This document shows, in pieces, positions 21,801-61,928 of a stretch of 64,000 nt of DNA. Source of the DNA: Escherichia phage vB-EcoP-XT18. The position numbers were made by a program, and so were the translations under genes. The first letter of the stretch is position 1; every line of letters begins with the position of its first letter. Below the pieces are notes generated by a model, which saw only the letters and a program-made list of their open reading frames with translations, ran no database searches and was not told the origin of the DNA. Location of the stretch: sequence record OR757434.1. One strand, written 5' to 3'.

Positions 21801-24800
21801 TCACTCCTTAGGTCGAACTCTTACACGGAGTCTCGATTGACGCTTACTGCGTTCAAGCTTCTCTGACAATGAGCCACGTTTAATCTTCGGCTTCCCTTCG
21901 TCATTAAACTTCTCCAAGAACTGCAAGTACTCAGTACGATTCGTTGTCTTGTAAGAAGGAATCTTAACATCAGGGTTCTCTTCAATCACACGTCTCATCT
22001 TCGCTACATCATCCCTGCCAAGCAACTTACTCTTAGCCTGTTCAGCTGTAGAACCAAAGATCTTCTCCAGTGCTCTGGATTTGTTACCACCTGCGGAAGA
22101 AGCACCAAGTTTAGCAATAGCAGAATAATCATCAGCACTAAACCAAGCTACCGGATTATCGCCATACTTCTTCTTGTTTTCAGCAGCAGTCTGCAATGCA
22201 CGTACAAAGCGACGGTTGTTACCAGCCTTATCTGCACCATGAACCCTGTCTAAAACTTCAGCCACACTAGCTAACTCATCCAAGCTCTTCCCACTCAAGA
22301 AAGCTTTCTCTACTTTATCAGCAAAGACTTCTTCCTGCTGCTTAATACTTTCCAAGATATCAGAATTTGCTTGAGATTTTTCATCGTCAGGCAGAGCAGA
22401 ACGAATCTTCTCCATCTCCATCTCTTCCTCTTGCAGTTTCTTAATATCAGAGTCAACCTTCTGAGCTTCCTCAATAGCCTTCCTAGTATCCGAATCCAAA
22501 TTATCAATCTTACCTTCAGTATCTCCAGTAACCTTAACAATCTCTTTCTCGATAGGAGTCATTGATTCGTACTTCTTAGCAAACTTCTCAACATCAGCCT
22601 CGATACGAGAACGAGCATTCTGATGTTCAGTTGGAGTCATAGGCTTCTCAAGAAGTGCATAACGGTTATCCATGTAGGAACCAGCAAACGCTTCAGCATC
22701 CTCTCTAGATATGCCCTTATCTTCCATAGTACGCACCAGACGGCGATGAATGTCATCACGTTGACGTTGTACTGCCATAAGGTCATTCTCACGCTCTTGG
22801 GCCGCTTTAAGCTCTTCACTGCGCTTAACTCTCTTGTCCACATCAAACTTACGGTTCATCTCTTCCGCTTGCTCATACATCTTGTTCCACTTGGCCTGAC
22901 GAGCATCTTCCTCTGCATCAGTTAAACGACGCTGACGATCAAGGTAATCTGACTCGGCGTTGTGGATACGTTCAATGTAACTACGGAACTTCTCTGGAGG
23001 AACTGGAGAGTTCTTGTCATGGTGAGCAGCCAACTGTTTCAATGTACGAGATTCCTGAGCCTCACGAACAGGTTTAGGTAAACCTTCCATCATCTTCTCA
23101 ATCTCACTCTTCTGAGCTGCAATAGCCTCTAGAGTTTTACGTTCATTCTCAACAGCAGCCTTAGCATCTGAACGAGCCTGAGCTTTGTTTTTCAGAGTGG
23201 CAAGACGTTCTTCACGAGCCTGTAAATGCTTAGCAGCAGCTTCATACTGAGAGTTCTTGTTAGCTTTGTTGAAGGCATTCACTTCTCTGTTATAGGTGTT
23301 AATAAACCCATCCCAAACATCCTTCATCTGACCAACTTCCAAAGCCTCTTCTCTACCAGCCTTCTCTGAAGATTTAAACTTCCCATCTACATAATCATTC
23401 ATCAGCTTACGCATAGCATCTTTCTGAGCAGGACGTAAAGGTTCTGAATCAATCAAAGTGTCAATCTCAGACTGAAGCTCTTTCTTCTGGTCAACCAGTT
23501 TAGGAGCATCTTTCTTATCAAAAGCTTTGTTCTCTTCTAGAGCTTGTTGATACAGTCTATCAAACTCATCCTCACGCTGCTTCTGATACAATCTTTCAGC
23601 ACGACGTTTCAGACTATCCAAGTTAGTAACGTTCCCACCTAAACCTTTCTCTTCAGCACGTAATGCCTTAGTAGCAATATCTTCTGGCAGACCACGTTCC
23701 TTAACCCATTCAGCAAAATTAGTTCGTACAGTGTTGTTCTTAGCAGTAGCAATACCTTGCTGAGAAGACAACTGGTTACGAGCCATTTCTTCATGACGTT
23801 CAGTGTTGATAGCATTATCTTCCTGACGAATACGACGCATCAATTCCTTAGGATCACCTTTATAAGCCAAGAAGTTTTCAGCAGTAGCTTTAGCCTTAGC
23901 AGCCTTAGAGTACAGAGAACGAGCAAAGCGTTCTGCACGATCTTTAGTAGCCTGACGAGCAGCACTAGACATAGCAGCTAAACGTTCTACACCACTTGCC
24001 GGTTTAACGTCCTGTACAGCTTCCTTAGGAGCTTTAGGAGCACGGGCAGGTAATGGCTCAGCTTTGACTGTTGGTTCCTCTACGGTTGGTTCTGGAGCCT
24101 GTGCGGCCTCTTCTTGAGCACGTTGCTGTTCCATTGCACGACGTTCCTCTAAAGGGTTACGAGCAGGGAGAGGTTCAGCCTGTGGAGCTTGTTCGACCGG
24201 AGCTTCTTGAGCCTGTGCTGCCTCTTCTTCAGCGCGACGCTGTTCAGCCTGACGGATAGCACGTCTTTGCGCAACTAAATCACGAGCTGTAAGAGGGGTT
24301 TCTTGAGGAGCAGAAGAAGAAAGATTTTCTTCCGTCACAGTACTAGAAGAAGGCTCCCGAACCGGTTCGGTTTCTACGTCATTTTGCGTCTTAAATTTAA
24401 TGTCACCAACAACTGGTTCTTCTTCCATTTTAGCACGAGCTTCATCAGCAGTAGACTTAGCACGAGCAACTTCCAAATCACCACGAGCCAGAGAGCGGAT
24501 AGCTTCACTGTTAGATTCTTGTTGCTTAACACGTTGAGAGCGAGCACGCTGAGAAGAGAAGCGATTCAGAGCATACTTAGCAGCACCGAGTGTGTTCATA
24601 ACCAGACTAGGAGAAGAAGCCTCACGGAATCCATCATCAGTCAGGGACGTCCAACCACGGTCTTGGTTGCTCATGAACTTAGCTGTATTATTCAGAGTGT
24701 AAGCATCTTGAATAGGATTAAAACCTTCAGGCATACCTTTCAGTTTCTTCAACCCACCAATAGCTTTCTTCATCTCTGGAGAAACATTATCAGCCATCTT

Positions 24801-26222
24801 CTGTAGTTCAGCAGCTTTCTCTACAAAGTTATTAAAGTCTTCACCATCACGAGCTTTGAATCGATTTGCTTCATTGTAGAAAGTCTTGTAAGCATCAATG
24901 AAATCACGGTCAGCTTGTGTACGGTTCTTAATGTCAATCGGACTACCAGTAAAATCACCAGAAGCTCGGAGAGAAACTAACTCACGATCAAGATTATCCA
25001 GAACATCTGTAAGAGCTTTAGTGTTATCCTTTGTGTAATCAGCCATTGCATCTTTCATAGCAACAGCTTGCTTCTGGTTGTGCTCGTTATCAGCGAATGC
25101 TTTACCACGAACTTTAGAAGGAGAAGCCAAAGGATTGAGGCCAGGAATGTTAGAATGTTCTTTCTGAACAGAAGCAGCTTTCTCGGCACGAGCTTGGTCT
25201 GTATTAAGGATGCGCTGAGCAGCAGGAGAGTCTACAGCAACAGCATCTGTGATACGGAATCCGTTCTCATCCAGAAGGTTAAGGGCAGAAGCGGCGTTAG
25301 CAGTTTCAGCTTTAGAGTATGCTTCTTTCAGCTCATCAATGTTCTTAGCACTACGAATTAATTCATCATCAGCAGCAATGTCAGTCTTTGCATACTCTGG
25401 AGTATTCTTAAAGACAGCAGAATCTGGACGACTAATCAAACCATGGACACCACCAACTGCACCACCGAATGCAGCACCCATAGCGCCTTCTTCAATAGCA
25501 CCTTCTAAGACATTAGAAAAGGTTGTGTCATCACCATGTTTGTTCTGAGCTTCAGCAGCACCTACAAGAGCACCACCTTTAGCACCAGCCACTGCGTTAC
25601 TAGCAACGTTCTGACCAATACGACCAAGTGTAGACTCAGCTGTACCAACAGCACCCGGAAGGATTCTCTGAGCTGCATAGTTAGCACCACCAACTAGAGC
25701 GGCATCCAGAACAGACTTATCTTCTCCCTCTTCAGGAGTTTGGTCTGCATATGCACGACCTGTCTCACGACCTGCAATGATAGCAGCGGCAGCTAATGGG
25801 TTAGCAACAGTCAAACCAATATCACCAACAACGCCAGCATATTGCCCAGCAGTTTTACCAATCCCATCCTCAATCTTATCCATACGATCTTTCAGAAGGT
25901 TCTGAGAGTTCTCTTGGATACGCTTACCATAACTAGTTTGTGCTCCAGCTAGATTCTCACCAATCTCAACTAAACCACCAATACCTTTAGCAGCACTAGC
26001 TGCAATGTTTGCACCACCAGATTGAAGAGCATTTGACACACCTTGAGCAAACTCACCTATAGCACCACGTTCTTCTTGTTGTGGTTGTGCTACTGGTTGT
26101 TCCTCAGGAATAGAGCCACCTGCTGCCTTATATTGTTCTCTCATTTGAGCTTGACGCTCCGGAGAGGCATTCAGATACGCAGGAGCTTTGGAAGCTTCTT
26201 CCCACGGTTTAATGTTAGCCAT
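21801..26222 (-). CDS. large internal virion / DNA-ejection protein (about 1473 aa)
   Basis: long Ala/Gly-rich N-terminus then extended coiled coil; start reassigned to the ATG at 26220-26222 with AAGGAG RBS (track start 26267 lies inside the promoter motif). Confidence 0.5.
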   Translation of the reverse strand: MANIKPWEEASKAPAYLNASPERQAQMREQYKAAGGSIPEEQPVAQPQQEERGAIGEFAQGVSNALQSGGANIAASAAKGIGGLVEIGENLAGAQTSYGKRIQENSQNLLKDRMDKIEDGIGKTAGQYAGVVGDIGLTVANPLAAAAIIAGRETGRAYADQTPEEGEDKSVLDAALVGGANYAAQRILPGAVGTAESTLGRIGQNVASNAVAGAKGGALVGAAEAQNKHGDDTTFSNVLEGAIEEGAMGAAFGGAVGGVHGLISRPDSAVFKNTPEYAKTDIAADDELIRSAKNIDELKEAYSKAETANAASALNLLDENGFRITDAVAVDSPAAQRILNTDQARAEKAASVQKEHSNIPGLNPLASPSKVRGKAFADNEHNQKQAVAMKDAMADYTKDNTKALTDVLDNLDRELVSLRASGDFTGSPIDIKNRTQADRDFIDAYKTFYNEANRFKARDGEDFNNFVEKAAELQKMADNVSPEMKKAIGGLKKLKGMPEGFNPIQDAYTLNNTAKFMSNQDRGWTSLTDDGFREASSPSLVMNTLGAAKYALNRFSSQRARSQRVKQQESNSEAIRSLARGDLEVARAKSTADEARAKMEEEPVVGDIKFKTQNDVETEPVREPSSSTVTEENLSSSAPQETPLTARDLVAQRRAIRQAEQRRAEEEAAQAQEAPVEQAPQAEPLPARNPLEERRAMEQQRAQEEAAQAPEPTVEEPTVKAEPLPARAPKAPKEAVQDVKPASGVERLAAMSSAARQATKDRAERFARSLYSKAAKAKATAENFLAYKGDPKELMRRIRQEDNAINTERHEEMARNQLSSQQGIATAKNNTVRTNFAEWVKERGLPEDIATKALRAEEKGLGGNVTNLDSLKRRAERLYQKQREDEFDRLYQQALEENKAFDKKDAPKLVDQKKELQSEIDTLIDSEPLRPAQKDAMRKLMNDYVDGKFKSSEKAGREEALEVGQMKDVWDGFINTYNREVNAFNKANKNSQYEAAAKHLQAREERLATLKNKAQARSDAKAAVENERKTLEAIAAQKSEIEKMMEGLPKPVREAQESRTLKQLAAHHDKNSPVPPEKFRSYIERIHNAESDYLDRQRRLTDAEEDARQAKWNKMYEQAEEMNRKFDVDKRVKRSEELKAAQERENDLMAVQRQRDDIHRRLVRTMEDKGISREDAEAFAGSYMDNRYALLEKPMTPTEHQNARSRIEADVEKFAKKYESMTPIEKEIVKVTGDTEGKIDNLDSDTRKAIEEAQKVDSDIKKLQEEEMEMEKIRSALPDDEKSQANSDILESIKQQEEVFADKVEKAFLSGKSLDELASVAEVLDRVHGADKAGNNRRFVRALQTAAENKKKYGDNPVAWFSADDYSAIAKLGASSAGGNKSRALEKIFGSTAEQAKSKLLGRDDVAKMRRVIEENPDVKIPSYKTTNRTEYLQFLEKFNDEGKPKIKRGSLSEKLERSKRQSRLRVRVRPKE

Positions 26223-26260
26223 AACGTCTCCTTTTATAAATAAAAATGTCCTACCCCCTA

Positions 26261-26269
26261 TATACATTA
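26261..26269 (-). promoter_or_regulatory. TAATGTATA, putative phage-sigma-dependent late promoter
   Basis: minus strand reads CTATAATGTATATAG about 35 nt upstream of the 26222 ATG. Confidence 0.45.
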
Positions 26270-26289
26270 TAGAAGGCAGGACTTAGGTC

Positions 26290-27945
26290 TTATTGAGCGA
26301 ACCAGCTGGTGTCTTCAACAGCTGATAAAGCACCGTTTAGTTTAGGATTGGTTGCTGCACCACCAACTGCCTCTTCTGCCTGTTCAGAGAAAACACCGAG
26401 TGGGTCATAGAAACCACCAGAAGGAATTGCACGGTTAACCAATGCAGTAGCCCTCTTCTTATCCATACCTGAACCAATGTACGCTTCGATAGTAGCTCTC
26501 TTAGCATCAGCAACACCTTTCATTGCAGATGTATGACCAACATTAGCCTGCTTACGGGCATAAGAAAGAGCAGAGTCAGTAGGACGCCATCCTGACTTAA
26601 GAGCAAACTTGTTGCCAACACGAATGAAGATTGATGGGTCTTCTGCGAAGTGTCCCAAGTCTTCTTCGGTAAGGGAACGAGTAGCACCGATTTCAGCCCT
26701 TGCGGAGTTCATGATAGCCTGCATGTAAGCAGAACGAGCTGTCTGGTAGTCTTTATCTTTAACTGCTTTGTCAGCCAAATCCAAGTCTTTGTTGGACTGG
26801 TTAAACAGACCACCTTTCTCTGCCCACTGCTTAGCAACTGTACCTTCAGCTGTGTTCTGAGCAAGACGAACTTCTTTCGGGTTAAAGTTAAAACTCTGAG
26901 CAACTTGTTCAGCACGTTCAGCCTTAACTTTATCACGATAACCAATCAACTCTTTCTGACGTTCAAAGTTCATGTCAGTTCTCTTTTCAGCAGCACGACG
27001 AGTTTCCTCAGCACGTTCACGCATAGACTGCTCTTGAATCTGTTGACGTCTATCCCATTCAGCATTCTGACGTTCTTCACGAGCAGCATACAGAGCTTCC
27101 TGTTGAAGAGGGTCTTTAGCTTTCATCTTCAGAAGAGAAGGATCACCCTGAGCTATAGCAGCTGCAATTGAGTCTTGAGAGAAACCTTGTTCAATCAGAG
27201 CATCACGGTTAGCTTCCAGTTGCTTTTTAGTCTCATCTTGATTAGCCATCCCCTGACCAATCTGGAATGCTTCGATAGGAGATTTACCTGACATGATAGA
27301 AAGACCTACACCCATTAAACCTGTATAGAAACTAGAGTTCTGATAGAAAGGTTCTTTCTGTAACTTCTTCCAAGCTTCTGAAGGATCTTTAGCTTTTGCA
27401 ACTTGCAAGATATCATTGTTAACACGCTCTTGATCTTTAGTACGAGTAGCAGCAGCCATTCCGTCACCGGTGTCTTGTCCTTGAGCAAGAGTATTAACAA
27501 CACCTTGTGCTTGTTCAACCTGAGAAGGAGTAAACTCCATAGGACCAGTTTCTAGTGGCTTGGCAGGAGGTGTCACCGGAAGAGGGTCACTAGGCATAAG
27601 TCCAGCATCCTGCAAACCTTGATCAGTAGATAAATTAGGATTAGCTGCTACAGGGGCTGGTGCTCCAATGTCAATACCCTGAAGACTTGTTGGGGTTCCT
27701 TGATTCTGTTGTTCCATAAGACGTTGCTGGAATCCCGGATTCATCATAGCATTCTGATCTTCTTCTGCCTGAGAGACAAGACCTGCGAGAGATGAAGGTA
27801 CAGCAGGACGCTGGTACATAGAAACATCCGCTGTCTGAGTAGGTCTAGCCATATAAGGAGAGGCCGAAGCCGCTCCCGGATTAACACCGTAGAAAGTATT
27901 TCTCGGGTCACGACTTCTGACCTGAGCGTAAGTTGTCTGTTGCAT
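26290..27945 (-). CDS. internal virion protein
   Basis: 551-aa ORF in the late operon, coiled-coil rich. Confidence 0.4.
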   Translation of the reverse strand: MQQTTYAQVRSRDPRNTFYGVNPGAASASPYMARPTQTADVSMYQRPAVPSSLAGLVSQAEEDQNAMMNPGFQQRLMEQQNQGTPTSLQGIDIGAPAPVAANPNLSTDQGLQDAGLMPSDPLPVTPPAKPLETGPMEFTPSQVEQAQGVVNTLAQGQDTGDGMAAATRTKDQERVNNDILQVAKAKDPSEAWKKLQKEPFYQNSSFYTGLMGVGLSIMSGKSPIEAFQIGQGMANQDETKKQLEANRDALIEQGFSQDSIAAAIAQGDPSLLKMKAKDPLQQEALYAAREERQNAEWDRRQQIQEQSMRERAEETRRAAEKRTDMNFERQKELIGYRDKVKAERAEQVAQSFNFNPKEVRLAQNTAEGTVAKQWAEKGGLFNQSNKDLDLADKAVKDKDYQTARSAYMQAIMNSARAEIGATRSLTEEDLGHFAEDPSIFIRVGNKFALKSGWRPTDSALSYARKQANVGHTSAMKGVADAKRATIEAYIGSGMDKKRATALVNRAIPSGGFYDPLGVFSEQAEEAVGGAATNPKLNGALSAVEDTSWFAQ

Positions 27946-27958
27946 ATTTATCTCCTAA

Positions 27959-28927
27959 TTAAGAACTAGCCATCCCGCCAATCACCCCTCCAGCCAAGGC
28001 ACCCCAAGGACCAAAAGAAGAGCCAGCTGCTGCACCACTCATAGCTCCACCAAGGAAACCACCTTTGCCACCAGATGTTTTAGTAGTTGTAGTTTGTCCG
28101 AGAGCACCGTTAAGTACACCTGCTGCACCTAGTTGGTTGTTAATGTCCTGCCATCCCCAGTTAGCTGCGTTCTGAGCATTCTGGTAGGCATTATCATATT
28201 CATTCTGTTGTTGCTGTTGTTGCTGCAACCCTGCATTCCATTGATTCATCATTTGCTGTTGAGACAAATTAGCACCTTGCTGGCCTAAGTTAGAAAGATT
28301 AGAACCGATAGTAGAAAGACCTGAGAGAGCAGCTGCCTGATTCTGCCTATTACCAGAGAGGATGCTTTCAGCTTGACTAATAGCTGAGTTATAGGCGCTA
28401 TTGGTAATATCTGTTGCTTGTCCTTGCATCTGATTCAGAGCATCGCCTTGAGCGAAAGATTTAGCCATACGAGCACCTGAACCCTGCTGACCAGCATACT
28501 GTTGAGCTAACTGAGGCAAAGCATTACGTGCTAGGTTCTGTTGAACTTGTTCGTTATTAGCTGTAATAGCTGCTTGCACAGCATCGTCATCATACAATTG
28601 ACCAGCAAGAGCACCAATCTGTTCTCCAGTAACCCCACCTTGTCCAGAAAGGCTCTGGTAGCCTTTATAGGCATTATCTAGATAACCCAACCCTTGGCCT
28701 GCTGCATCCATGTATTGTTGTGAGAGAGTCCCTAGAGCACCAGATTGTGCCAAGTTGTTAAGAGCTTCTGTCTGGTTGTTATTAAACCCTACATTGTCAC
28801 GATAAACATAATCCCCTGAACTAGTATTACCAATCTGCTGGTTAAGCTGGTCAATATACTGTTGAATGTATTCAGGGCGAATCATTTGAGAAGTAGTCTT
28901 ACTACCCCCGCCTCCGAAAAGTCCCAT
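27959..28927 (-). CDS. Gln/Asn/Gly-rich virion protein
   Basis: low-complexity Q/N/G-rich ORF in the late operon. Confidence 0.4.
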   Translation of the reverse strand: MGLFGGGGSKTTSQMIRPEYIQQYIDQLNQQIGNTSSGDYVYRDNVGFNNNQTEALNNLAQSGALGTLSQQYMDAAGQGLGYLDNAYKGYQSLSGQGGVTGEQIGALAGQLYDDDAVQAAITANNEQVQQNLARNALPQLAQQYAGQQGSGARMAKSFAQGDALNQMQGQATDITNSAYNSAISQAESILSGNRQNQAAALSGLSTIGSNLSNLGQQGANLSQQQMMNQWNAGLQQQQQQQNEYDNAYQNAQNAANWGWQDINNQLGAAGVLNGALGQTTTTKTSGGKGGFLGGAMSGAAAGSSFGPWGALAGGVIGGMASS

Positions 28928-28939
28928 ATTAAATCTCCT

Positions 28940-29992
28940 TTAGTTTGCTCCGAATGCCCCTAAGACCCCACCTAAGATATTATTACCCGTTGTGGATAAC
29001 CAGTTAGACTGACCTTTCTGTTGAGAAAGATTAGAACCTCCAATCATAGGACCAGCCATTCCAGATTGCCCACCTGAGTTGTTATAGGAACTCCAAGCAT
29101 TCTGAGTCTGTTGGTTAGGAGAGAAAACTCCCATACGACCTGCAATACCCAAACCAGTGATACCAGCACCTAGGAGCTGTTGTCCAGTATTAATCCCCGG
29201 AGCAGCATTCTTAATCGTGTATCCAGCCATAGGACTTACACTATTTAGTACATTAAGCTGATTGTTAAGCTGATTCCATCCATACTGCTGAGAGCCGATA
29301 GCATTCTGCCAATTAATATCAGCCTGAGCTTGGGCTTGTTGCTGTTGCAGATTGCCAGCCATGAGTTGATTCTGAATGGCCTGTTGAGTTGCCTGAACAC
29401 CTTGAGCACCTAGGTTGAGGTTCTGTCCAGCTAGACCGGATTGAGCACCAAGTAACCCTCTCTGGAAGTTCTGATCTTGTTGCAAAGCACTTACACCCAT
29501 ATTCTTGCCACTGATAGTACGAGACAGGTTTGTATTAGCACCATTCAAAGCAGCCCCTTGAGCCGCAGCCCTACGGAGAGAACCAGAATCAGAGCCATTG
29601 CCAAGAGAGACATTAGAAGCTGCTTTGCTAGTAGCTTGTGCAAGAGCTGAGTTGTTTAGTCCTTTACTAAAGTTATTAACACCCTCAGCCGTAACTCCAC
29701 CACCATTGACAATATTCTGATACTGTTGAGCAAGAGAGTTGAGTTGGTCCAAACCTTGCTGTGTACGAGGTGTGTACATATCAGCTAATTGCTTTTGAGT
29801 TGTAGAAGCTGCTAAGTTATTCAGAGCACCTTGTTGGTTGCCATTAAACCCAGCCAGCTGTTGGGAAATAAATCCCTGATCGTTGTTCTGCATATTCTGA
29901 GCATTAGCAACAATCTGCTTCAGCAGGGCATCAACCTGAGAGGAAGGAGCCACTGTGGTTTTGCTAGAAGCTGATTTTCCAAATAAAGACAT
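28940..29992 (-). CDS. Gln/Asn/Gly-rich virion protein
   Basis: low-complexity Q/N/G-rich ORF in the late operon. Confidence 0.4.
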   Translation of the reverse strand: MSLFGKSASSKTTVAPSSQVDALLKQIVANAQNMQNNDQGFISQQLAGFNGNQQGALNNLAASTTQKQLADMYTPRTQQGLDQLNSLAQQYQNIVNGGGVTAEGVNNFSKGLNNSALAQATSKAASNVSLGNGSDSGSLRRAAAQGAALNGANTNLSRTISGKNMGVSALQQDQNFQRGLLGAQSGLAGQNLNLGAQGVQATQQAIQNQLMAGNLQQQQAQAQADINWQNAIGSQQYGWNQLNNQLNVLNSVSPMAGYTIKNAAPGINTGQQLLGAGITGLGIAGRMGVFSPNQQTQNAWSSYNNSGGQSGMAGPMIGGSNLSQQKGQSNWLSTTGNNILGGVLGAFGAN

Positions 29993-30011
29993 AAGTCCTC
30001 CTTAACGATTA

Positions 30012-30794
30012 TTACTTAACACCAATGCTAGCCAAACGTCTGAGCACTGCTTGTGTTTGTGGACTGTACTGAGAACCTGCTGCATGAGGTGTACTCACTC
30101 TCTGAACTGTTTGAGAAGTAGGAGGTTTACCAGCAAGCATAGCAGCTACTCCTAATACTGCATTACCAAAGTTCTGTTGAGGCTTCTGGTCTTCACCTTC
30201 CTGTACTTCATCAGAGTAAAACTCTACCGGATTACCACCTAAAGCACCTGTCTTAGAAGCAGAAATCTCTGCCTGAGTTGGAGCTTGTGCAGCCTTCTCT
30301 CTATTTAGATTTTCTGGATTAAACTGGTTGACCGGTTGGACAGCTTGCAAAGCTCCAATAGGGTTAGCAATCTGAGAAGCTGCATCACCATAGAAAGGGA
30401 GAAAATGTTTGTTGTTCATTGAATCAAGAGCCTGAGGGGTAAACCCTCTTTTACCAGCGAACATCTGCTTAGCACCACCTATACCTTCTGAATAACCAAC
30501 CATTGCTTTCTTAACATCACCATTAAAAGCCTTTAAGTTATCTCTAATATAACGAGCACCCATGTCAATATTTTTTGCTGGGTCCAGTCTATCTTCCAGC
30601 TTATATCCATAGTCTTTAGCCAACCCTTTACTGATCTGCATTAAACCTACAGGACCAGTTCCAGAGGCCACTTTAGGACGTCCACTAGACTCTCTTTGGA
30701 TTACAGCATGAATCAAAGCAGCTGGTATTCCATACTTCTTTGAAGCCTGTTGAACCATTGGGTCTAGTTCTTCAATACCCATTTTAATTGCCAT
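30012..30794 (-). CDS. virion-associated lytic transglycosylase (SLT domain)
   Basis: ESSGRP...GLMQI resembles the SLT catalytic motif. Confidence 0.65.
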   Translation of the reverse strand: MAIKMGIEELDPMVQQASKKYGIPAALIHAVIQRESSGRPKVASGTGPVGLMQISKGLAKDYGYKLEDRLDPAKNIDMGARYIRDNLKAFNGDVKKAMVGYSEGIGGAKQMFAGKRGFTPQALDSMNNKHFLPFYGDAASQIANPIGALQAVQPVNQFNPENLNREKAAQAPTQAEISASKTGALGGNPVEFYSDEVQEGEDQKPQQNFGNAVLGVAAMLAGKPPTSQTVQRVSTPHAAGSQYSPQTQAVLRRLASIGVK

Positions 30795-30806
30795 AATATC
30801 TCCTTG

Positions 30807-31838
30807 TTATAGTCCAGCAAAAACCTTAGCTGCATTCATTACAGGAACTGATAGATTAACTACAGTGTCAGCTCCTAGGTCGTAATTTTGATCCCACTGA
30901 AATAGGTATCTTCCATAGCCAGTTCCTATGCTAGAGCCGCTCATTGTGTGAGATCTCATTTGCTGATATCTCCATCCACTACCTTGGCCTTTTATTGCAC
31001 CTATTCCAGAAGTAAGAGGTATCATAGGATACGACATTCCAGTGTTACCACCACCTGAACCTATAAAAGTATCTACAGTGAAAGGTGTTCTGTTAGTAGA
31101 GAAGACGCACTGAGTGGTGCCCGGAGAGTAGATATTCAAACCCCCGTTATGCTCAGGAACGCCAGCTCCGTTGCAGAATACGGCAATCCTCACAAAGACG
31201 GACCCTCCTTCATTAGTGTTTCCGTTGACATAAGGCCTATTCTGATAGACTCGAATAATCCTGTCATCAGATGTGTAAGATAAACCAACCCCTCCATCAG
31301 ACCAATTAGCAAATACAACAGCATTGGTCATATTGAACCCACCAATATTTGGTATCTGAAGGGAGTTGTTTATGGTCCCCTGCCAAGCCCAAATACATTG
31401 ACCAACAACCCCACTATCCGATATTGAGAAGTAGTCTGCTGTATTGGAAAAGGTAATTCCATAATTCCTATCCGCTCTAGGCCATATTTGGTATACGTTG
31501 AACCCACAGTCGAACAGAGGGTTACTACCTGGGTTCTGATTCAGAGTGACTCTAAAAGAGGAGTTGTTTTCTACGTAGATATCATTCACACAATAAACAT
31601 CAGGAACTAGGTTAGGAGGGACTTCCCATTGCCAGCATAAAGAACCAGTAGGAACAATAACTATCTGACCACTGCCATCCCACCCACTAATAGGGAAAGA
31701 CCTCCCTGCCCCGTTAAAGTTAAAACTTCCTCTTATACTATTCTTGAACTGAGGGAAAGTACTTCCACTGTCTATGAAAAGAGGGGCTGGTGTAGCTGGT
31801 CCCGGCCCTACCGGTTGTGTCCAAATTCCATATGCCAT
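30807..31838 (-). CDS. structural protein
   Basis: ORF in the late operon. Confidence 0.4.
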   Translation of the reverse strand: MAYGIWTQPVGPGPATPAPLFIDSGSTFPQFKNSIRGSFNFNGAGRSFPISGWDGSGQIVIVPTGSLCWQWEVPPNLVPDVYCVNDIYVENNSSFRVTLNQNPGSNPLFDCGFNVYQIWPRADRNYGITFSNTADYFSISDSGVVGQCIWAWQGTINNSLQIPNIGGFNMTNAVVFANWSDGGVGLSYTSDDRIIRVYQNRPYVNGNTNEGGSVFVRIAVFCNGAGVPEHNGGLNIYSPGTTQCVFSTNRTPFTVDTFIGSGGGNTGMSYPMIPLTSGIGAIKGQGSGWRYQQMRSHTMSGSSIGTGYGRYLFQWDQNYDLGADTVVNLSVPVMNAAKVFAGL

Positions 31839-31839
31839 A

Positions 31840-32808
31840 TCACCAACTCCCTATCCTAATTCTCAGAGCACCACTTCCATCATAGAAGTCTATCCTGTTT
31901 CCATTCATCCATAATTGTGCCCCACCTGTGCCACCCATAACGAAATCACCTCCAACAGTAAACCTCCAGTTAGTACCTGACATTGTACCAGCAGTTATTT
32001 TATCAGCAGACAAACTTTGAATCTGAGCATTGGTGATTGATACGTTGGTAATCTGCCCCCACTCAATAGTAGCAGTTGCAATTTGAGCAGAGGTGATAAC
32101 TACGTTAGTGATATCAGCAAACTCCATAACAGCTCTACCGTTCTCAACTCTGAATGGGGTACTTCCTGACGTGCCATCAGATACCACAAACTTATCAGCT
32201 GTTACTTGGAACTGGCTTATAGTGCCATTGTTTGTTAGCTTTACCCCTGCTGTCTTGCCGTTTACTGTGGAATTAACACCCCAAGTAGCCTCATACTCGG
32301 TGAGCTTCATATACTGAGATGCACTTCCTGTGCCATTAGTGAGATCAGATTGAATAAGAGCTATCTCTTGTCCTTGGTCGTTAACAATCCCTTCGACAGT
32401 TTGGATAGATGCTGTATTTCCTTCTATAGACGTTTTGATACCGGACACAGTTGAATCCAGCTTGACAGGAGGACTAACAGAATTATCCCAAATGTCATCA
32501 GTGGATAGATTACCCATTTGTGTTATGATATCTGCAATGGCAGTCTCAATCTCTGTAGTAACACGGTTCTCTAGTTCATCGAATTGTAAATTCATAGCAT
32601 GAAGAGCTTTAATACGAACATCAATCTCCTCATGGATTTCATCTATAGCTTGGAACATTTGATTAGTTGCAGTACTGATATTCTGGAGTTCATCATATAT
32701 TGCAACGTTGTTAGTTTCTACACTCTCAGAGGTGTTTAGAAAACCCACACTATAAGGTTGTGTTGTGTTGTTTCTTCCGGTATTCTTACGAAAGCCACCA
32801 GCACCCAT
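31840..32808 (-). CDS. tail-fibre-like structural protein
   Basis: ORF in the late operon; C-terminal Thr/Gly-rich repeats. Confidence 0.4.
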   Translation of the reverse strand: MGAGGFRKNTGRNNTTQPYSVGFLNTSESVETNNVAIYDELQNISTATNQMFQAIDEIHEEIDVRIKALHAMNLQFDELENRVTTEIETAIADIITQMGNLSTDDIWDNSVSPPVKLDSTVSGIKTSIEGNTASIQTVEGIVNDQGQEIALIQSDLTNGTGSASQYMKLTEYEATWGVNSTVNGKTAGVKLTNNGTISQFQVTADKFVVSDGTSGSTPFRVENGRAVMEFADITNVVITSAQIATATIEWGQITNVSITNAQIQSLSADKITAGTMSGTNWRFTVGGDFVMGGTGGAQLWMNGNRIDFYDGSGALRIRIGSW

Positions 32809-32820
32809 ATAACCTCCTTC

Positions 32821-32852
32821 TTATAAACAAGAAAAGGGAGCACGAAGCTCCC
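32821..32852 (-). terminator. rho-independent terminator (minus strand)
   Basis: GGGAGC-UUCGU-GCUCCC then UUUUCUUGUUU on the minus strand. Confidence 0.55.
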
Positions 32853-32858
32853 TTAGTA

Positions 32859-35816
32859 TTATCTTCGCCCGCCAACAGCAAATTCAATAGTTAGGCCATT
32901 GATAGCTGCATTACTGTTAACATCATTATCTATAACATTATAGAATAGATACGGATGGTTCAGTCGGACACCTACATGTCTGTCCACACCAATCGTATAA
33001 GACTTTTCACTGTGAATATGTCTATCTTCCTGATCAGAATACTGACTACCGCCAGCTTGGAATATATAGGTACCTGACCCTGTTACTTGTGGACGGAATC
33101 GGTTTATGTGCTTCTGATTCCATTCGTTAGTTACATTGTCAAAATCTATACCAGTTCTTTCCAGTTTCATCTCTAAAGGCTTCCTGACAACAATATCATT
33201 CAACCTATCGAATGAGTAGTCATAAGGACCTACATCCACTTGGTAAAAGCCTTTCATCCAAGAACCTACTACAGTGACTCTCTGACGGAAGTTAGTAGAA
33301 TCCTTTCTCCACACAAGTTCACTGATTGAAGGGTCATCCCAAGTATACTCTTGGAAATCCACCCAAGTAGGACCTTTCTCTAGAGTTGGAGGATCAACTA
33401 AACCGATACAATGAGAGAATGGGATTGTACGGAAAGACCATGTATCAAACTCATAGTTCCATACAGCGGCTTTAGTACAAGCAAAACTCCCAGCAGGCTC
33501 TCCGGGTCCAACATAGAGAATCCACACTTCCTTCTTATCTTGATGTAAGTGAACCTTAGTGGCTAAAGGGTTTACTAAACAGATTTCGTTGATAAGCATG
33601 TTCTTGACCCTGTTGGATGCAATAGATTTCTTAGTTGCACCATTGTGTAGAATAACATCATTCTGAGTAACAACAAAGTGACTGCTCTCAACTTCAACCA
33701 CACACTCAGGAGCTAAGATTCCAGAATCGTTGAAGAGCTTCTTGAACATTAGTGGTTGATATGTGTTGTTAGTTGGGGATCCGATGTAAGTCTCAAACTC
33801 TGTGTAGATAAATAAGTAATCCTTAAGAGGAAGAATCTCAACTAAACTACCGTTTGAGTCAGCTAAATCTATATACCCAGCATATCCATTTTCCAGAGCC
33901 TCAGTCTGACCTACAACGTTTGCCGCTAAGTCTGAAGTCACATATCTATCGTAAGCAAAATCATCCCATAAAGTAGGTGCCTTATTCTCATTAGCGTAAT
34001 TAGACCAGCGAAGGCGAAGAGGATAGTGAGTGGTAACCCCTGATGCATTAGACTCTCGCATATTAAGAGCAAATAGGCGATTATTAAATGCACGAATCCT
34101 TTCGCACTTCCAGTTATATTTTACAACAGATGGGTTTCCGTTAGCATCAACTATCGTCTGCTCCCCCCACCCCGGAAGATCTGTGAAGTACTCAGAGGCA
34201 AACTCTTTTACTTGAGGGGTTTCGTAGTGAGTGGTGAATACTGCGCAGTTAGAAATAATCGTATTGTACCAAGGATATTCCTCAAACGCTTCATAGTCTC
34301 TACGAGCTACCTGACTAGCAGTACAGGTTATCTTCACTTTGCCAGTCTTAATAGCAGTTAAGGTAAAGGAAGGCCCAGTAGTGGAAGTAGAGGATACATA
34401 TCCCGGCTGATCTACCACCCAATTATAAAGATAGTCTCCTTCAGGGAATGCCGTTGCAGTTATTACTAATTCATCTCCAACATCAATTTCAGTATCCACA
34501 ATGTCAAGAGTTAAAGTTTCAAGTTGAGCTGACCTTGACATAACTGCATTTAAAGAATAGGCTTCGACTCCATCAACCATAGAATAGTCATAAAAAGGGT
34601 TGCCCTCTGACATAGCCGAAGTGTCGATACCTGAATCCGTAGAACTCGGTTCTTCAGGAGGAGCTGATGCAGCAGCAAAAAGGGTTCTACTTGACAGCTC
34701 AACTCTAACACTACAGGTAGCTGTCCTCTCACCTTCTTCCGTAGTTGCTGTTATAACTGTGAACCCAGCTGTGAGTCCAGAGATAGTACCTTGAAGACCT
34801 GTTCCAGAAACAGTAGCAATATTTGGATTAGAGGAGGTCCAAGTTATTTTCTGATTTGCAGCATTTGATGGGATTAAACTAGCATACAAGACATATGACG
34901 CCCCACGGTTAATTTGTAAATCTGTTTGACTCAAAGATATACTGTCAATTTGATTAATAACACTAACAGAACATTCTGAGGTCTTAGACCCATTGCTTGC
35001 AGTTATTAGTGCATTACCTACTCCTTGAGCGGATAAAACTGCTGTAGTAGTATCACCGTTAGGAGCTACAGAAATAATGGCTGGGTTAGAAGAAGTCCAT
35101 GTTAGAGGGGTCTTACTGGATGTTGCTGTAAGTGTGGTTGTTCCGCCTTTACGGAGTTGGACAGAGTCCCGGTTAAGGAAGATACCAGAATCAGAATCAA
35201 CAACCCTTACGGAGATGCTGGCAGTCACAGAATCATCTTCATTAGAGACAGTGACAGTAAAGCTGCCCTCATTAGATAAGACACTCAATGTAGCTTTCTT
35301 ACTATCATCAGGATCAACTAGTATTGAACCATAAGAAGGATTACTAACCTCCCACACAAGAGATGGTGTAGTAACACCCTCCGGAAGAAGAGATACCTCA
35401 AGAGTCTTGCTTTCATTAAAATTCATAATGACAGACGTTTCTTTAGGGATGATCTCCGTTAGTACAGGATTTATCTTAACATAAGACACAGCTTTTTTGG
35501 TGACTGTAGCCACTCTTCGACTAACATCAATCATAGATTCGTTGTTCAGTCTAAAAATACTCTTATCTGTACCTACCAGCAAGAAGCTATTGTTAGCGCT
35601 AAAGTAGTCAAAAGGCATTGAAGCGAATGATAATGGTTTTATTTCTTTATCACTCTCAACGTAAGAAAGAGGGGCAGAGCCCCCCGTTTTAAACACACGC
35701 TGTTCTACAAACCGAGCATTGATTGCATTAGTGAATGCATTAGGAGCCAGATCTGTAGGAGATTGGTCGGCAATAACACCAACCGCACCCAAAGATTTTA
35801 TTGGGTAGAGAGCCAT
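32859..35816 (-). CDS. large structural protein with three Big_2-like Ig domains
   Basis: repeats of the form ITWTSSNP..ATV......G...ITA typical of bacterial Ig-like group 2 domains. Confidence 0.5.
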   Translation of the reverse strand: MALYPIKSLGAVGVIADQSPTDLAPNAFTNAINARFVEQRVFKTGGSAPLSYVESDKEIKPLSFASMPFDYFSANNSFLLVGTDKSIFRLNNESMIDVSRRVATVTKKAVSYVKINPVLTEIIPKETSVIMNFNESKTLEVSLLPEGVTTPSLVWEVSNPSYGSILVDPDDSKKATLSVLSNEGSFTVTVSNEDDSVTASISVRVVDSDSGIFLNRDSVQLRKGGTTTLTATSSKTPLTWTSSNPAIISVAPNGDTTTAVLSAQGVGNALITASNGSKTSECSVSVINQIDSISLSQTDLQINRGASYVLYASLIPSNAANQKITWTSSNPNIATVSGTGLQGTISGLTAGFTVITATTEEGERTATCSVRVELSSRTLFAAASAPPEEPSSTDSGIDTSAMSEGNPFYDYSMVDGVEAYSLNAVMSRSAQLETLTLDIVDTEIDVGDELVITATAFPEGDYLYNWVVDQPGYVSSTSTTGPSFTLTAIKTGKVKITCTASQVARRDYEAFEEYPWYNTIISNCAVFTTHYETPQVKEFASEYFTDLPGWGEQTIVDANGNPSVVKYNWKCERIRAFNNRLFALNMRESNASGVTTHYPLRLRWSNYANENKAPTLWDDFAYDRYVTSDLAANVVGQTEALENGYAGYIDLADSNGSLVEILPLKDYLFIYTEFETYIGSPTNNTYQPLMFKKLFNDSGILAPECVVEVESSHFVVTQNDVILHNGATKKSIASNRVKNMLINEICLVNPLATKVHLHQDKKEVWILYVGPGEPAGSFACTKAAVWNYEFDTWSFRTIPFSHCIGLVDPPTLEKGPTWVDFQEYTWDDPSISELVWRKDSTNFRQRVTVVGSWMKGFYQVDVGPYDYSFDRLNDIVVRKPLEMKLERTGIDFDNVTNEWNQKHINRFRPQVTGSGTYIFQAGGSQYSDQEDRHIHSEKSYTIGVDRHVGVRLNHPYLFYNVIDNDVNSNAAINGLTIEFAVGGRR

Positions 35817-37496: not shown

Positions 37497-39569
37497 TCAT
37501 ATCAATCCATAGATGATGTTGTGAAGAACACACCCCCCAACTGCGCCACCTATGTTGAAATTAATTTCAGCCTTACTGGACCCTGGAGGAACTGAATCAA
37601 TAACAGCATAGAAACTGAACGAGTTGTTACTAGGTATGTAATATCCAATAGACTCAGAAACTGCATTACCTGCTGAATCTAGAAACCTAATAGATGCTAG
37701 TGTAGTGGTTGTATTCTTAGCCCAAAAACCAAACTGAAAGTATCTTCCGGGATGACACTCACTCACTGATTGGGTGAAGTTTGCCGAGCTAGTCGTATCT
37801 GGGACACCAAAAGAGAATGATGTGTTAAACATAGGAGACGAACTCGGAACATCATTGGGTTGAGAAACTGACACTACCCCTGATCCTGTTTGACTAAATG
37901 TCCAGTTAGATGTATTTAAGAATTGCCCGGAACCATTACTAAGACTATTAATGTAAGGGCTTACAATAGATCCAAGATCCCACCTACTTAAGACAAAACC
38001 AGCTCTAGGGTAACATCCGTTAGACACAACTCTCTTACTATCACCGCCGATGAGTTGGCGAGTAGGGAAACCAGTGGCTAGAGTATTGTTGCCATACAGA
38101 GGTAGAGAGCAGTTTGTCAGAGAAACAAAACCATCCCCATTACTTACTATAGGGACAGAACTAAAACCTACAGGGACCAAAATTGTCGAATCTTTTATGC
38201 TCAATCTCGAACTACCATTAACAGAAAAAGAAACAAAAGACTGATCCGGTTGATACTCAATGTTCCCATTAGAAAAAACAACTGTGGCGTTGTCTGTCAT
38301 TATAATGGTTGGGTCAAAATATCCAGACTTTTTCCCAGCAGGAAGTGAACACGTATCAAAGATGAATTGTCCATTCTCAAAAGTAAAAGGTCCTCCGTTA
38401 TCCACGCACCAGCAGTGATTGAACTTTATAACTTCTCCAGAGTTCGCTCTTGATTTAAAAACAACCGTGTCCGTAAAGCTTCTACTTATTGCACATTTGT
38501 CAAAAAGGATCCTATATGAATTATCAAGGAATTCAAGACCAGCTGTTGAGATAAAACCACAATTTTCTATCCGAACTTCCGACACCTCCCCACTATCAGT
38601 CCCTCCAATTACAACCTTTCTGGCACCTAGACCAACAAAGGACACTCCTGATATCTTAGCTGTTGAAGAAATCGAATCTCTAAGCCCATAATCTGTGTTT
38701 GAATTTATAATCTTCAAGAAATATTGACCTGTTGCTCCAGCCCCTTCCTGAAGCTTACAATTATTATAGCCTATCAAGGCTCCTTTAGAAACGTCAATAG
38801 CTATCTCAGATAATACGGATCCAGAAGTTGGAACTATACAATCGTAACCAGAGGAGTTCACTTTGTTGATATAAACAGCAATATCCCCGCTGCCAGTGTA
38901 GCCTGCATCAAACACAGAAGCTTCTCCAGAGAATAGCAACCTCTTCCATTTTACAGAAACTCCACTGAAAACCACCACCCCATCAGCTGTTTCTGAATTG
39001 TCTATTGCTACAAACACACCCCCTCCCATATTAGCCCCTTCGACATAAGATCTTACAAAGACTTTGTCACCTACAGAAGCTCCCTCTAAGGTCTGAAGTT
39101 GTTCAATAGAGGGGAGATCTCCAATAAGATTAAACCCTGTAGGCAGGCCTAGTTCTTGAGAGACCACATTAGATACCTGACCTAATGCCACTGCTTCGTC
39201 ACTCTCAACGGCGTTTGGTATACGTATAGGTTGAGAAAAAGTTACCTTATTTGTCATCGAAGTAATATCTGAGTTAGCCCCACTCTTAGCCGCAACCAGT
39301 GCGAGCCTTGCCGTGTCCGGAGAAGAGGCTCCTGTACCACCTTTCGAAATAGGAACAATATTTTCTACAGAAACATCACCTAATCCTAAATTAGATCTAG
39401 CAATAGTAGTATTAATTGCTCCTGTACCACCTTTCGAAATAGGAACAATATTTTCTACAGAAACATCACCTAATCCTAAATTAGATCTAGCAATAGTAGT
39501 ATTAATTGCTCCTGTACCACCTTTCGAAATAGGAACAGGCTCCTGTACCACCTTTCGAAATAGGAACAA
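37497..39569 (-). CDS. tail fibre, C-terminal portion (gene appears split by a frameshift in the repeat array)
   Basis: begins with identical 30-aa tail-fibre repeats (SKGGTGAINTTIARSNLGLG); overlaps the upstream ORF by 68 nt. Confidence 0.6.
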   Translation of the reverse strand: MFLFRKVVQEPVPISKGGTGAINTTIARSNLGLGDVSVENIVPISKGGTGAINTTIARSNLGLGDVSVENIVPISKGGTGASSPDTARLALVAAKSGANSDITSMTNKVTFSQPIRIPNAVESDEAVALGQVSNVVSQELGLPTGFNLIGDLPSIEQLQTLEGASVGDKVFVRSYVEGANMGGGVFVAIDNSETADGVVVFSGVSVKWKRLLFSGEASVFDAGYTGSGDIAVYINKVNSSGYDCIVPTSGSVLSEIAIDVSKGALIGYNNCKLQEGAGATGQYFLKIINSNTDYGLRDSISSTAKISGVSFVGLGARKVVIGGTDSGEVSEVRIENCGFISTAGLEFLDNSYRILFDKCAISRSFTDTVVFKSRANSGEVIKFNHCWCVDNGGPFTFENGQFIFDTCSLPAGKKSGYFDPTIIMTDNATVVFSNGNIEYQPDQSFVSFSVNGSSRLSIKDSTILVPVGFSSVPIVSNGDGFVSLTNCSLPLYGNNTLATGFPTRQLIGGDSKRVVSNGCYPRAGFVLSRWDLGSIVSPYINSLSNGSGQFLNTSNWTFSQTGSGVVSVSQPNDVPSSSPMFNTSFSFGVPDTTSSANFTQSVSECHPGRYFQFGFWAKNTTTTLASIRFLDSAGNAVSESIGYYIPSNNSFSFYAVIDSVPPGSSKAEINFNIGGAVGGCVLHNIIYGLI

Positions 39570-39701
39570 TATTTTCTACAGAAACATCACCTAATCCTAA
39601 ATTAGATCTAGCAATAGTAGTATTAATTGCTCCTGTACCACCTTTCGAAATAGGAACAATATTTTCTACAGAAACATCACCTAATCCTAAATTAGATCTA
39701 G
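39328..39701 (-). repeat. perfect 90-bp tandem repeat array (about 4 full units plus a 31-nt partial unit) inside the tail-fibre gene
   Basis: units at 39328, 39418, 39539 and 39629; truncated 30-nt unit plus one G at 39508-39538. Confidence 0.85.
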
Positions 39702-61853: not shown

Positions 61854-61928
61854 GTCCCTATAGTTAAAAGGATATAACAGATTTCTTCTAAAAATCCATT
61901 CTAGGTTCGAGTCCTAGTGGGGACGCCA
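61854..61928 (+). tRNA. tRNA-Arg (anticodon UCU) with encoded CCA
   Basis: hand-folded cloverleaf: 7-bp acceptor stem with one G-U, D arm GTTA/TAAC, anticodon stem GATTT/AAATC with loop CTTCTAA, T arm CTAGG-TTCGAGT-CCTAG, discriminator G. Confidence 0.8.

Follow-up and report, generated by a model that had tools for sequence, protein, structure and literature searches.

Among the components with which short-tailed phages pass their DNA across the Gram-negative envelope, the ejection proteins are the least well understood. The closest described set is that of the E. coli podophage SU10, in which gp20 to gp24 were found in virions by SDS-PAGE and mass spectrometry (Siborova et al. 2022, PMC9509320; mass spectrometry in Supplementary Table 1 and Fig. 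4C). These five proteins are packaged in the head, leave the particle at genome release after the tail needle has detached, and are absent from genome-release intermediates; the authors named them ejection proteins (PMC9509320). Degradation of peptidoglycan was ascribed to gp20, apparently from homology, and gp21 to gp24 were assigned to a channel across the periplasm (PMC9509320). No density was resolved for the five proteins in virions, where no ordered core stack was seen. The complete tail is made of portal, adaptor, nozzle, needle and two fibre types, with no room or density for gp20 to gp22, which are lost at genome release while the tail remains (PMC9509320). The SU10 work on ejection proteins has also been cited for phage YF01 (PMC9965538). 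Phages of this type, the Kuraviruses, are in use for E. coli phage therapy and biocontrol work.

The window analysed here, a stretch of 64,000 nucleotides, belongs to a Kuravirus (phiEco32/SU10-like E. coli podophage) with 99.9% nucleotide identity to vB-EcoP-XT32/XT73. It carries a cassette of five minus-strand genes that closes the late operon. The features are, in transcription order:

32859..35816, minus strand: nozzle gene, upstream of the cassette
31840..32808, minus strand: needle gene, upstream of the cassette
after the needle gene and before the SLT gene: DUF6453 gene, 343 aa
30012..30794, minus strand: SLT lytic transglycosylase (ejection protein 1), 260 aa, orthologue of SU10 gp20
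28940..29992, minus strand: Gln/Asn/Gly-rich protein (ejection protein 2), 350 aa, orthologue of SU10 gp21
27959..28927, minus strand: Gln/Asn/Gly-rich protein (ejection protein 3), 322 aa, orthologue of SU10 gp22
26290..27945, minus strand: 551-aa protein (ejection protein 4), orthologue of SU10 gp23
26248..26282, minus strand: 15-bp hairpin plus AUUUUUAUUU, in the gap between the 551-aa and 1473-aa genes
21801..26222, minus strand: 1473-aa protein (ejection protein 5), orthologue of SU10 gp24, last gene of the late operon

The first-pass annotation had put an SLT-domain protein, two Gln/Asn/Gly-rich proteins, a 551-aa protein and a large coiled-coil protein of about 1473 aa downstream of the tail genes, within 26290-30794. 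The nozzle and needle genes do precede the SLT gene, and all five proteins are real, but this span holds only the four smaller genes and the 1473-aa gene lies outside it. Gene order and lengths (260, 350, 322, 551 and 1473 aa) are those of SU10 gp20 to gp24, as is the position after the nozzle, needle and gp19 genes, and the proteins are 95, 97, 98, 95 and 97.3% identical to gp20, gp21, gp22, gp23 and gp24, respectively. No material difference from SU10 was seen; the window phage is a separate isolate, closest to XT32/XT73. Because orthologues 95-98% identical are present in SU10 virions and gone from the release intermediates, the earlier proposal of an ejection apparatus is supported. Absence from purified virions was to have counted against that proposal, and the near-identical SU10 proteins are there by mass spectrometry. 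We conclude, with a probability of about 0.85, that the cassette codes for the ejection (internal virion) proteins of the Kuravirus, acting by the channel mechanism proposed below.

This identity was already known, having been shown by experiment in SU10 in 2022, so that for the window itself only a correct annotation is gained. Sequence analysis adds the alignment of a catalytic glutamate (E35) with that of T7 gp16 (E37), the absence of cysteine, glycine-zipper-like segments, the lack of relatives in the libraries, and the recurrence of the cassette. The cysteine absence, the glycine-zipper tails, the fold of the 551-aa protein, the hairpin and the recurrence as a block could help in working out which protein does what; none overturns the current picture.

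The five proteins contain no cysteine in 2971 residues, whereas it makes up 1.31% elsewhere in the window (binomial P ~9×10−18). It is rare in their homologues too (2 Cys in 36,190 residues), and the equivalent proteins of phages Privateer and BUCT695 have none. The four non-enzymatic proteins are mostly helical and restricted to the Kuravirus-type phage lineage; they have no relative in Pfam, NCBIfam or PDB, and neither sequence nor fold comparison linked them to a solved ejection protein. Each contains at least one hydrophobic Gly-rich segment, as called by a simple Kyte-Doolittle scan and motif counts, most segments scoring only 1.0-1.7. These segments are conserved wherever they could be aligned, the 350-aa protein having been compared with a single distant relative.

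The mechanical open reading frame of the largest protein opens at ATG 26267 and would encode 1488 aa, but the length of 1473 aa is the right one, because ATG 26222 has an AAGGAG ribosome-binding site and ATG 26267 lies inside the hairpin; phrog_14629 spans residues 16-1488 of the longer frame. The N-terminal ~280 residues are Gly/Ala-rich, with hydrophobic segments at 131-149 and 246-264, and conservation extends over the N-terminal half to about residue 600, residues 151-250 being the best-conserved stretch. Next (~601-750) comes a variable, Pro-rich linker that contains an imperfect repeat of ~40 aa, then a charged, helical C-terminal half ending in a strongly basic tail, kept in 9 of the 9 family members aligned and weaker in Privateer and BUCT695. 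While its size and existence hold, the coiled coil that had been announced for this protein stands only in part: long runs free of Pro and Gly, with 33% charged residues overall, weakly suggest one; in a heptad test that was crude and unvalidated, only 6.7% of 35-residue windows scored higher than the 99th percentile of shuffles (clustering at ~940-1058, 1205-1273 and 439-497).

It is conceivable that the 1473-aa protein works in the cytoplasm after injection, by clamping or pulling the DNA, protecting its ends or taking over the host, rather than in a periplasmic tube. The charged, net helical character, the conserved basic tail and the release of the SU10 orthologue from the particle all suit such a role, and the C-terminal domain of T7 gp16 is cytoplasmic and binds DNA (PMC8954989). 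We nevertheless consider it unlikely: no nucleic-acid-binding, enzymatic or other family match was found for the protein, and its Gly/Ala-rich hydrophobic region, which includes the best-conserved stretch, suggests contact with a membrane. Moreover, a cytoplasmic role overlaps with the ejection-channel reading and does not exclude it.

Still less probable is that the large proteins, and the 1473-aa one in particular, are primarily internal head proteins with a part in capsid assembly or in organising the DNA of the unusually prolate head, for instance as a core or a length ruler, their expulsion with the DNA being a by-product that builds no channel. The SU10 proteins do lie inside the head, unresolved among the DNA layers, and the large protein is long and helical. 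Its family (12 representatives among 1.84 billion proteins) has turned up only in podophages of the prolate C3 morphotype and their relatives, and the full-length members vary between 1086 and 1754 aa by way of an expandable central region. The shortest versions (1108-1113 aa) belong to elements on ~60-64 kb contigs, but none of these contigs is known to represent a complete genome. Across known genomes, the length of the protein does not follow that of the genome (86.3 kb and 1385 aa in BUCT695, 77 kb and 1473 aa in Kuraviruses, 90.7 kb and 1529 aa in Privateer), and a ruler would leave the conserved hydrophobic N-terminal segments and the basic tail unexplained. Isometric podophages also have large terminal ejection proteins, T7 gp16 being of 1318 aa (PMC8954989).

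The 67-nt gap in front of the 1473-aa gene holds the hairpin (dG −22.9 kcal/mol, z −3.0), just upstream of the AAGGAG site. Its sequence is identical in SU10; in ECBP2/SU7 it carries five substitutions, all of which keep the pairing, and the distant element L003 has a different hairpin plus a T-tract at the equivalent place. The hairpin looks like a terminator, and we tentatively suggest that it is part of the ejection system, possibly controlling the dosage of the large protein.

The two Gln/Asn/Gly-rich proteins were rightly singled out by their composition; the part of flexible core components that the first-pass annotation proposed for them is putative, as is a physical spanning of the envelope by the set. 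With Q+N+G at 40.9% (350 aa) and 40.4% (322 aa), they are the two highest of the window, about 4.3 standard deviations above the mean of its 72 putative genes (16.2%, sd 5.7). They are paralogues (32% identity, composition-corrected E 5×10−13), and both match over their full length phrog_4287 (E 1.2×10−117 and 1.7×10−107), whose name, “DNA ejection protein”, is an annotation. In the 350-aa protein, residues 273-291 form a hydrophobic segment rich in Gly, as is the C-terminal end; its segment LLGAGITGLGIAGRMGVFS scores 1.29 on the Kyte-Doolittle scale. The 322-aa protein contains 12 overlapping [GAS]xxx[GAS] triple motifs and ends in an uncharged, glycine-zipper-like tail (289-322), which is the best-conserved block across 27 homologues, down to 37% identity. 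Its AF2 model consists of helices only, at an unreliable pLDDT of 39.

The 551-aa protein is covered over its full length by phrog_12130. A disordered, Pro/Gln-rich N-terminus (~1-135) precedes a helical body (140-530), one helix of which is 72 residues long (AF2 mean pLDDT 69). Conservation is highest in the hydrophobic Gly-rich segment 199-235, and a C-terminal G-A-L-S...W motif is also conserved. No relative was found in PDB, by sequence or by fold, and the fold model matched in BFVD GAP52 and a virion protein of Privateer verified by mass spectrometry. The protein is predicted to adopt a distinct fold, without a solved relative.

The SLT domain occupies residues 13-114 of the 260-aa protein (Pfam PF01464, 84.2 bits for a cutoff of 21.3, E 6.6×10−24); the C-terminal ~140 residues gave no family match, and phrog_12507, “transglycosylase”, covers the protein in full. 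Matches of the domain in PDB are T7 gp16, MltC, Slt70 and EmtA. The protein aligns with residues 11-127 of T7 gp16 and places R-E35-S36 opposite T-E37-S38, E37 being the catalytic residue (PMC8954989). It carries an intact family-1 lytic transglycosylase domain, including the catalytic Glu35-Ser36 motif. That it might be a lysis enzyme, and the Gln/Asn-rich proteins external tail or neck appendages, as further PHROG matches of the domain (“lytic tail protein” and “endolysin” families) and the labels given here and there to related records (“neck appendage protein”, “tail fiber”) would have it, is barely credible: lysis has genes of its own, for a holin, a lysozyme-type endolysin of 163 aa and an Rz-like spanin, so that the protein is not required for it, and the SU10 tail is complete without gp20 to gp22 and stays when they exit.

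For the ejection proteins, the following sequence of events may be proposed, the roles of the individual proteins being deduced from size, gene order and composition only. Once the nozzle has formed and the needle is lost, the proteins would traverse the portal-nozzle channel in an unfolded or extended state. The transglycosylase would cut a local hole in the peptidoglycan, and the 350-aa and 322-aa paralogues would insert their glycine-zipper tails into a membrane, making or lining a pore. The 551-aa protein could prolong the conduit through the periplasm, a role assigned, following the custom for T7 gp15-like proteins, from its size and the position of its gene. The 1473-aa protein might be anchored in the inner membrane by its N-terminal hydrophobic helices, its long charged helical part and basic tail facing the DNA or the cytoplasm as in T7 gp16. 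Absence of cysteine would spare the proteins disulfide trapping while they refold in the oxidising periplasm. The ejection channel is a model, since SU10 gave no density and no image of a post-ejection channel has been sharp enough for proteins to be assigned.

The cassette travels as a block: in distant relatives, on contigs derived from E. coli and Enterobacter, the five-gene order recurs at 29-44% identity with other genes around it. A similar layout ends the operon in Grimontviridae, with a Q/N-rich protein followed by one of ~560 aa and one of ~1400-1530 aa. In one of them, Proteus phage Privateer, the three proteins at the structural operon end (QIN94811, 409 aa; QIN94815, 557 aa; QIN94816, 1529 aa) are all free of cysteine and annotated as verified by mass spectrometry in virions. 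Over ~190 aa the Q/N-rich protein shows ~29% identity, the 551-aa fold model finds the ~557-aa protein (Foldseek E 1.3×10−5), and the 1529-aa giant has weak colinear similarity to the 1473-aa protein (E 2×10−4 and 0.018). Privateer differs in having one Q/N-rich gene instead of two and three small genes interposed, and it belongs to a different virus family. It is possible, though doubtful, that the Kuravirus/Grimontviridae ejectosome is an independent structural solution and no divergent form of the T7/P22 one, with a strictly cysteine-free set of five, a zipper pore made of paralogues and a giant protein at low dose. If so, the paralogues would form a hetero-oligomeric membrane pore by their C-terminal glycine zippers, and the conserved hairpin would lower the dose of the >1000-residue protein, which would serve as the inner-membrane and cytoplasmic part and whose central spacer could be adjusted in length. 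Lack of cysteine would in that case mark, as a general rule, proteins that have to refold in the periplasm once they have passed through the tail.

The P22 set (gp7, gp20 and gp16) is without the N-terminal peptidoglycan-hydrolase domain of T7 gp16 (PMC8954989). It resembles the cassette in that internal proteins are ejected with no ordered core, and differs in the number and sizes of the proteins, with no sequence match in any library searched. The P22 virion is not known to contain another peptidoglycan hydrolase.

With T7 gp14, gp15 and gp16 the cassette shares head-internal proteins, genes placed after the tail-tube genes and a size increasing along the gene order, gene position being read here from sequence, and packaging and ejection from the SU10 data. 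Also shared are the family-1 transglycosylase domain with the same catalytic glutamate, and the largest protein coming last, with hydrophobic segments and a basic C-terminus, as in gp16 (PMC8954989). Kuraviruses, however, have five proteins versus three, and their SLT domain sits on a separate, first-encoded protein rather than at the N-terminus of the largest one. Two paralogues of 322-350 aa, which gave no T7-family match in PDB searches, stand in place of gp14 (~200 aa, 4-5 predicted transmembrane helices). SU10 shows no ordered core stack, and beyond the SLT domain no sequence or fold similarity to the T7 proteins is detectable. By analogy, and with no family membership implied, the cassette appears to work like a T7-type ejectosome.

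A nucleotide search with window 21801-30794 gave matches in 98 phage records. Escherichia phages vB-EcoP-XT32 and XT73 came out best, with a nucleotide identity of 99.9%, and other Kuraviruses (172-1, phiEco32, SU10, SGF2 and others) were found at about 94-95%. Kuraviruses, members of the Gordonclarkvirinae, are podophages with prolate heads. The cassette and the hairpin that interrupts it are as follows.

30794..30012, minus strand: SLT protein, 260 aa
29992..28940, minus strand: Q/N/G-rich protein, 350 aa
28927..27959, minus strand: Q/N/G-rich protein, 322 aa
27945..26290, minus strand: 551-aa protein
26248-26282, minus strand: 15-bp hairpin, then AUUUUUAUUU (dG -22.9 kcal/mol, z -3.0)
26222..21801, minus strand: 1473-aa protein

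As the first-pass annotation had proposed, these genes lie downstream of the tail genes: nozzle (985 aa), tail needle (322 aa) and then a 343-aa DUF6453 gene precede them in transcription order, all on the minus strand. The largest gene had been placed within 26290-30794, which is incorrect, as it occupies 26222..21801. Its mechanical ORF opens at ATG 26267 and would encode 1488 aa. Since ATG 26222 has AAGGAG just before it and 26267 is inside the hairpin, the annotated 1473-aa product is right. This hairpin sits in the 67-nt gap separating the 551-aa and 1473-aa genes, immediately 5′ of the ribosome-binding site of the latter. SU10 and KBNP1711 have exactly the same hairpin, and the ECBP2/SU7 version carries five substitutions, all of which keep the pairing. 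The hairpin may set the dose of the large protein, either by terminating part of the transcripts or by acting on RNA stability.

Other features of the region were recorded. The DUF6453 protein (30807-31838, minus strand; phrog_1265, labelled 'membrane protein'), encoded between the needle and transglycosylase genes, has 6 cysteines and few charged residues. Its SU10 counterpart, gp19, is listed as 'not structural' in a supplementary table (PMC9509320), and a role in assembly is possible. A GC-rich palindromic 8-bp hairpin at 32834-32854 separates the nozzle gene from the needle gene; T-rich sequence flanks it on either strand, so it is terminator-like in both directions. A single tRNA-Arg gene (anticodon TCT) is found at 61854-61928 on the plus strand. 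In the region of the long-tail-fibre gene (37497-40563, minus strand), perfect 90-nt tandem repeats occur at 39322-39701, and 31 nt are perfectly duplicated at 39508-39568. Instead of one fibre reading frame there are two overlapping ORFs, of 353 and 690 aa, where XT32, 99.9% identical, has a single 1071-aa CDS; the split is either a repeat-slippage frameshift or an assembly error within the repeat.

The five cassette proteins were identified by orthology as the Kuravirus gp20-24 set: they are 95, 97, 98, 95 and 97% identical to SU10 gp20, 21, 22, 23 and 24, and neither the lengths nor the gene order differ. Using SDS-PAGE and mass spectrometry on SU10 virions and on genome-release intermediates, Siborova et al. 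(Nat Commun 2022, PMC9509320) found gp20-24, together with the needle gp18, in the former and not in the latter; they termed gp20-24 ejection proteins. In their model, gp20 degrades peptidoglycan and gp21-24 lengthen the nozzle across the periplasm, and no density in the virion was assignable to gp20-24 (PMC9509320). The same assignment was given again for phage YF01 in a later comparative paper (PMC9965538). The resemblance of the cassette to an ejection apparatus, noticed in the first-pass annotation, is therefore upheld, because near-identical proteins are present in SU10 virions and lost at genome release (PMC9509320). The possibility that such proteins are missing from purified virions is also answered for SU10, where mass spectrometry detected them (PMC9509320). 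The five-gene set is thus already known, from experiments on a phage with 95-98% identical proteins. We note that Supplementary Table 1 of the SU10 study (PMC9509320) gives 515 residues for gp23, whereas the genes of SU10 and of the window each encode 551; this is probably a transposed digit, the alternative being a 36-residue N- or C-terminal processing.

The SLT domain was confirmed in the 260-aa protein (PF01464, 84.2 bits). Its Glu35-Ser36 aligned opposite Glu37-Ser38 of T7 gp16, in which Glu37 is the catalytic residue (PMC8954989), and this alignment indicates an intact transglycosylase active site. The C-terminal ~140 residues gave no family match.

The two Q/N/G-rich proteins are equally real, with the two highest Gln+Asn+Gly contents of the window, 40.9% and 40.4% (mean 16.2%, sd 5.7, over 72 putative window genes). 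They share 32% identity (E 5e-13, compositional correction applied), and both match phrog_4287 over the full length. Judged by these alignments, they are paralogues rather than random low-complexity sequence. In the 322-aa protein, conservation across 27 homologues (identity down to 37%) is highest in the uncharged C-terminal tail, with consensus GxLGGAMSGAAAGSAFGPWGALAGGxIGG, that is, overlapping small-xxx-small motifs in series; the 350-aa paralogue has LLGAGITGLGIAGRMGVFS plus a Gly-rich end. An AF2 model of the 322-aa protein, built with the 27 homologues, contained low-confidence helices only. With a pLDDT of 39 it was unusable for a fold search, so that its helical character alone is noted.

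The 1473-aa protein had been described as a coiled coil, which stands in part: charged residues make up 33% of it, and its stretches free of Pro and Gly reach 93 residues, but heptad windows above threshold amount to only 6.7%, by a crude test of our own that is unvalidated as a predictor (threshold, 99th percentile of shuffles). The N-terminal region is Gly/Ala-rich, with hydrophobic segments at 131-149 and 246-264. Conservation covers residues 1-600 and 750-1473, and the variable Pro-rich linker between them holds an imperfect ~40-aa repeat. Thirteen of the last 35 residues are Lys or Arg, and this basic tail is present in 9/9 aligned family members, at low identity. When 1.84 billion representatives were searched exhaustively with the N-terminal 560 residues of the protein, only 12 proteins matched, where a word-indexed search had given two fragments only. 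In each of the longest seven (1086-1754 aa) the domain is N-terminal, and the remaining five are fragments of 65-231 aa. Some records name the large protein 'TolA', 'erythrocyte binding protein', 'liver stage antigen' or 'nuclear pore complex'; no family match supports these names, which are best regarded as low-complexity artefacts. A short G-[AS]-L motif is repeated near conserved C-terminal positions across cassette proteins, noted for the 551-aa and 1473-aa proteins and also for the 322-aa and 260-aa ones: NGALS in the 551-aa protein (G538, L540 and S541 invariant), RG[AS]L ahead of the basic tail in most large-protein family members, and NGALGQ in the 322-aa family. This recurrence could be chance, or a common packaging or processing signal.

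The five proteins, 2971 residues in all, contain no cysteine, although its share elsewhere in the window is 1.31% (binomial P ~9e-18), in contrast to the nozzle, gp19 and the distal fibre, which have 9, 6 and 11. Homologue sets contained 2 cysteines in 36,190 residues, and the equivalent proteins of Proteus phage Privateer and of phage BUCT695 contained none; these counts drew on alignments A1, A3 and A4 and loci L003, L008, L009 and L010. A full-text literature search found no paper reporting this absence in ejection proteins, and the word 'cysteine' does not occur in a review of these proteins (PMC8954989).

Distant relatives of the cassette were found on two kinds of contig.

L003: E. coli assembly GCA_023211535.1, contig DAHCAP010000002.1, 204-225 kb of 389 kb
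L008: Logan SRR24679947, 59.9-kb contig; identical protein named from Enterobacter cloacae

On the 389-kb E. coli contig, as on the Enterobacter-derived contigs, there are capsid, terminase and portal genes of the SU10 type. Two genes further on come an SLT protein (291 aa) and proteins of 333/334, 322, 490/498 and 1108/1113 aa, in the window's gene order and at 29-44% identity to its proteins, with no fibre, nozzle or needle genes intervening. L003 has a different hairpin and T-tract at the position equivalent to 26248-26282. The late operon of Grimontviridae closes with genes for a Q/N-rich protein of ~400 aa and, after several small genes, for proteins of ~560 aa and 1385-1529 aa; in Privateer these three are annotated as virion proteins verified by mass spectrometry, and the similarity of its giant protein to the window's is weak, yet colinear. 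Both comparisons argue for the five genes forming one module. L003 gave no megablast match among complete E. coli genomes, phages and plasmids, and may be a prophage or a contaminating phage. L003 and L008, which lie within or next to large bacterial contigs, may stem from a relative that, unlike the lytic Kuraviruses, is temperate or persists in a carrier state, or they may be artefacts of assembly.

Packaging in the head and release at genome ejection are shown for the orthologues, and the window's set has conserved hydrophobic Gly-rich segments, no cysteine and a basic tail on its largest protein. The proteins would exit in extended form through the opened nozzle, and the transglycosylase would open the murein. 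The two Q/N/G-rich paralogues could then enter a membrane via their glycine-zipper tails, the 551-aa protein could build the periplasmic part, and the 1473-aa protein could span or anchor in the inner membrane and touch DNA or cytoplasm. These putative roles follow, from size, order and composition only, the T7 paradigm of a small membrane protein, a mid-sized tunnel protein and a large last protein (PMC8954989). If the large protein acted in the cytoplasm only, this would still overlap with the scheme. That it is instead a head core or head-length ruler is improbable, as its length bears no consistent relation to genome size among known relatives. Finally, a lysis enzyme or external appendages would conflict with three observations: holin, endolysin and spanin genes are separate, the SU10 tail model is complete (PMC9509320), and the proteins are lost at genome release in SU10 (PMC9509320).

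The compositional and comparative details are modest additions, which could guide the assignment of roles protein by protein. Sequence and profile searches of the four non-enzymatic proteins gave no match in PDB, Pfam (to E 5) or NCBIfam, and no sequence or fold similarity to the T7/P22 ejectosome families was detected. The T7 and P22 ejectosomes resemble the window's set in their manner of working. However, the T7 transglycosylase is the N-terminus of the largest protein, whereas that of the window is a separate protein, and the window has five proteins where T7 and P22 have three. Because of these two differences and the lack of similarity, we would not count the four non-enzymatic proteins among the T7/P22 families.
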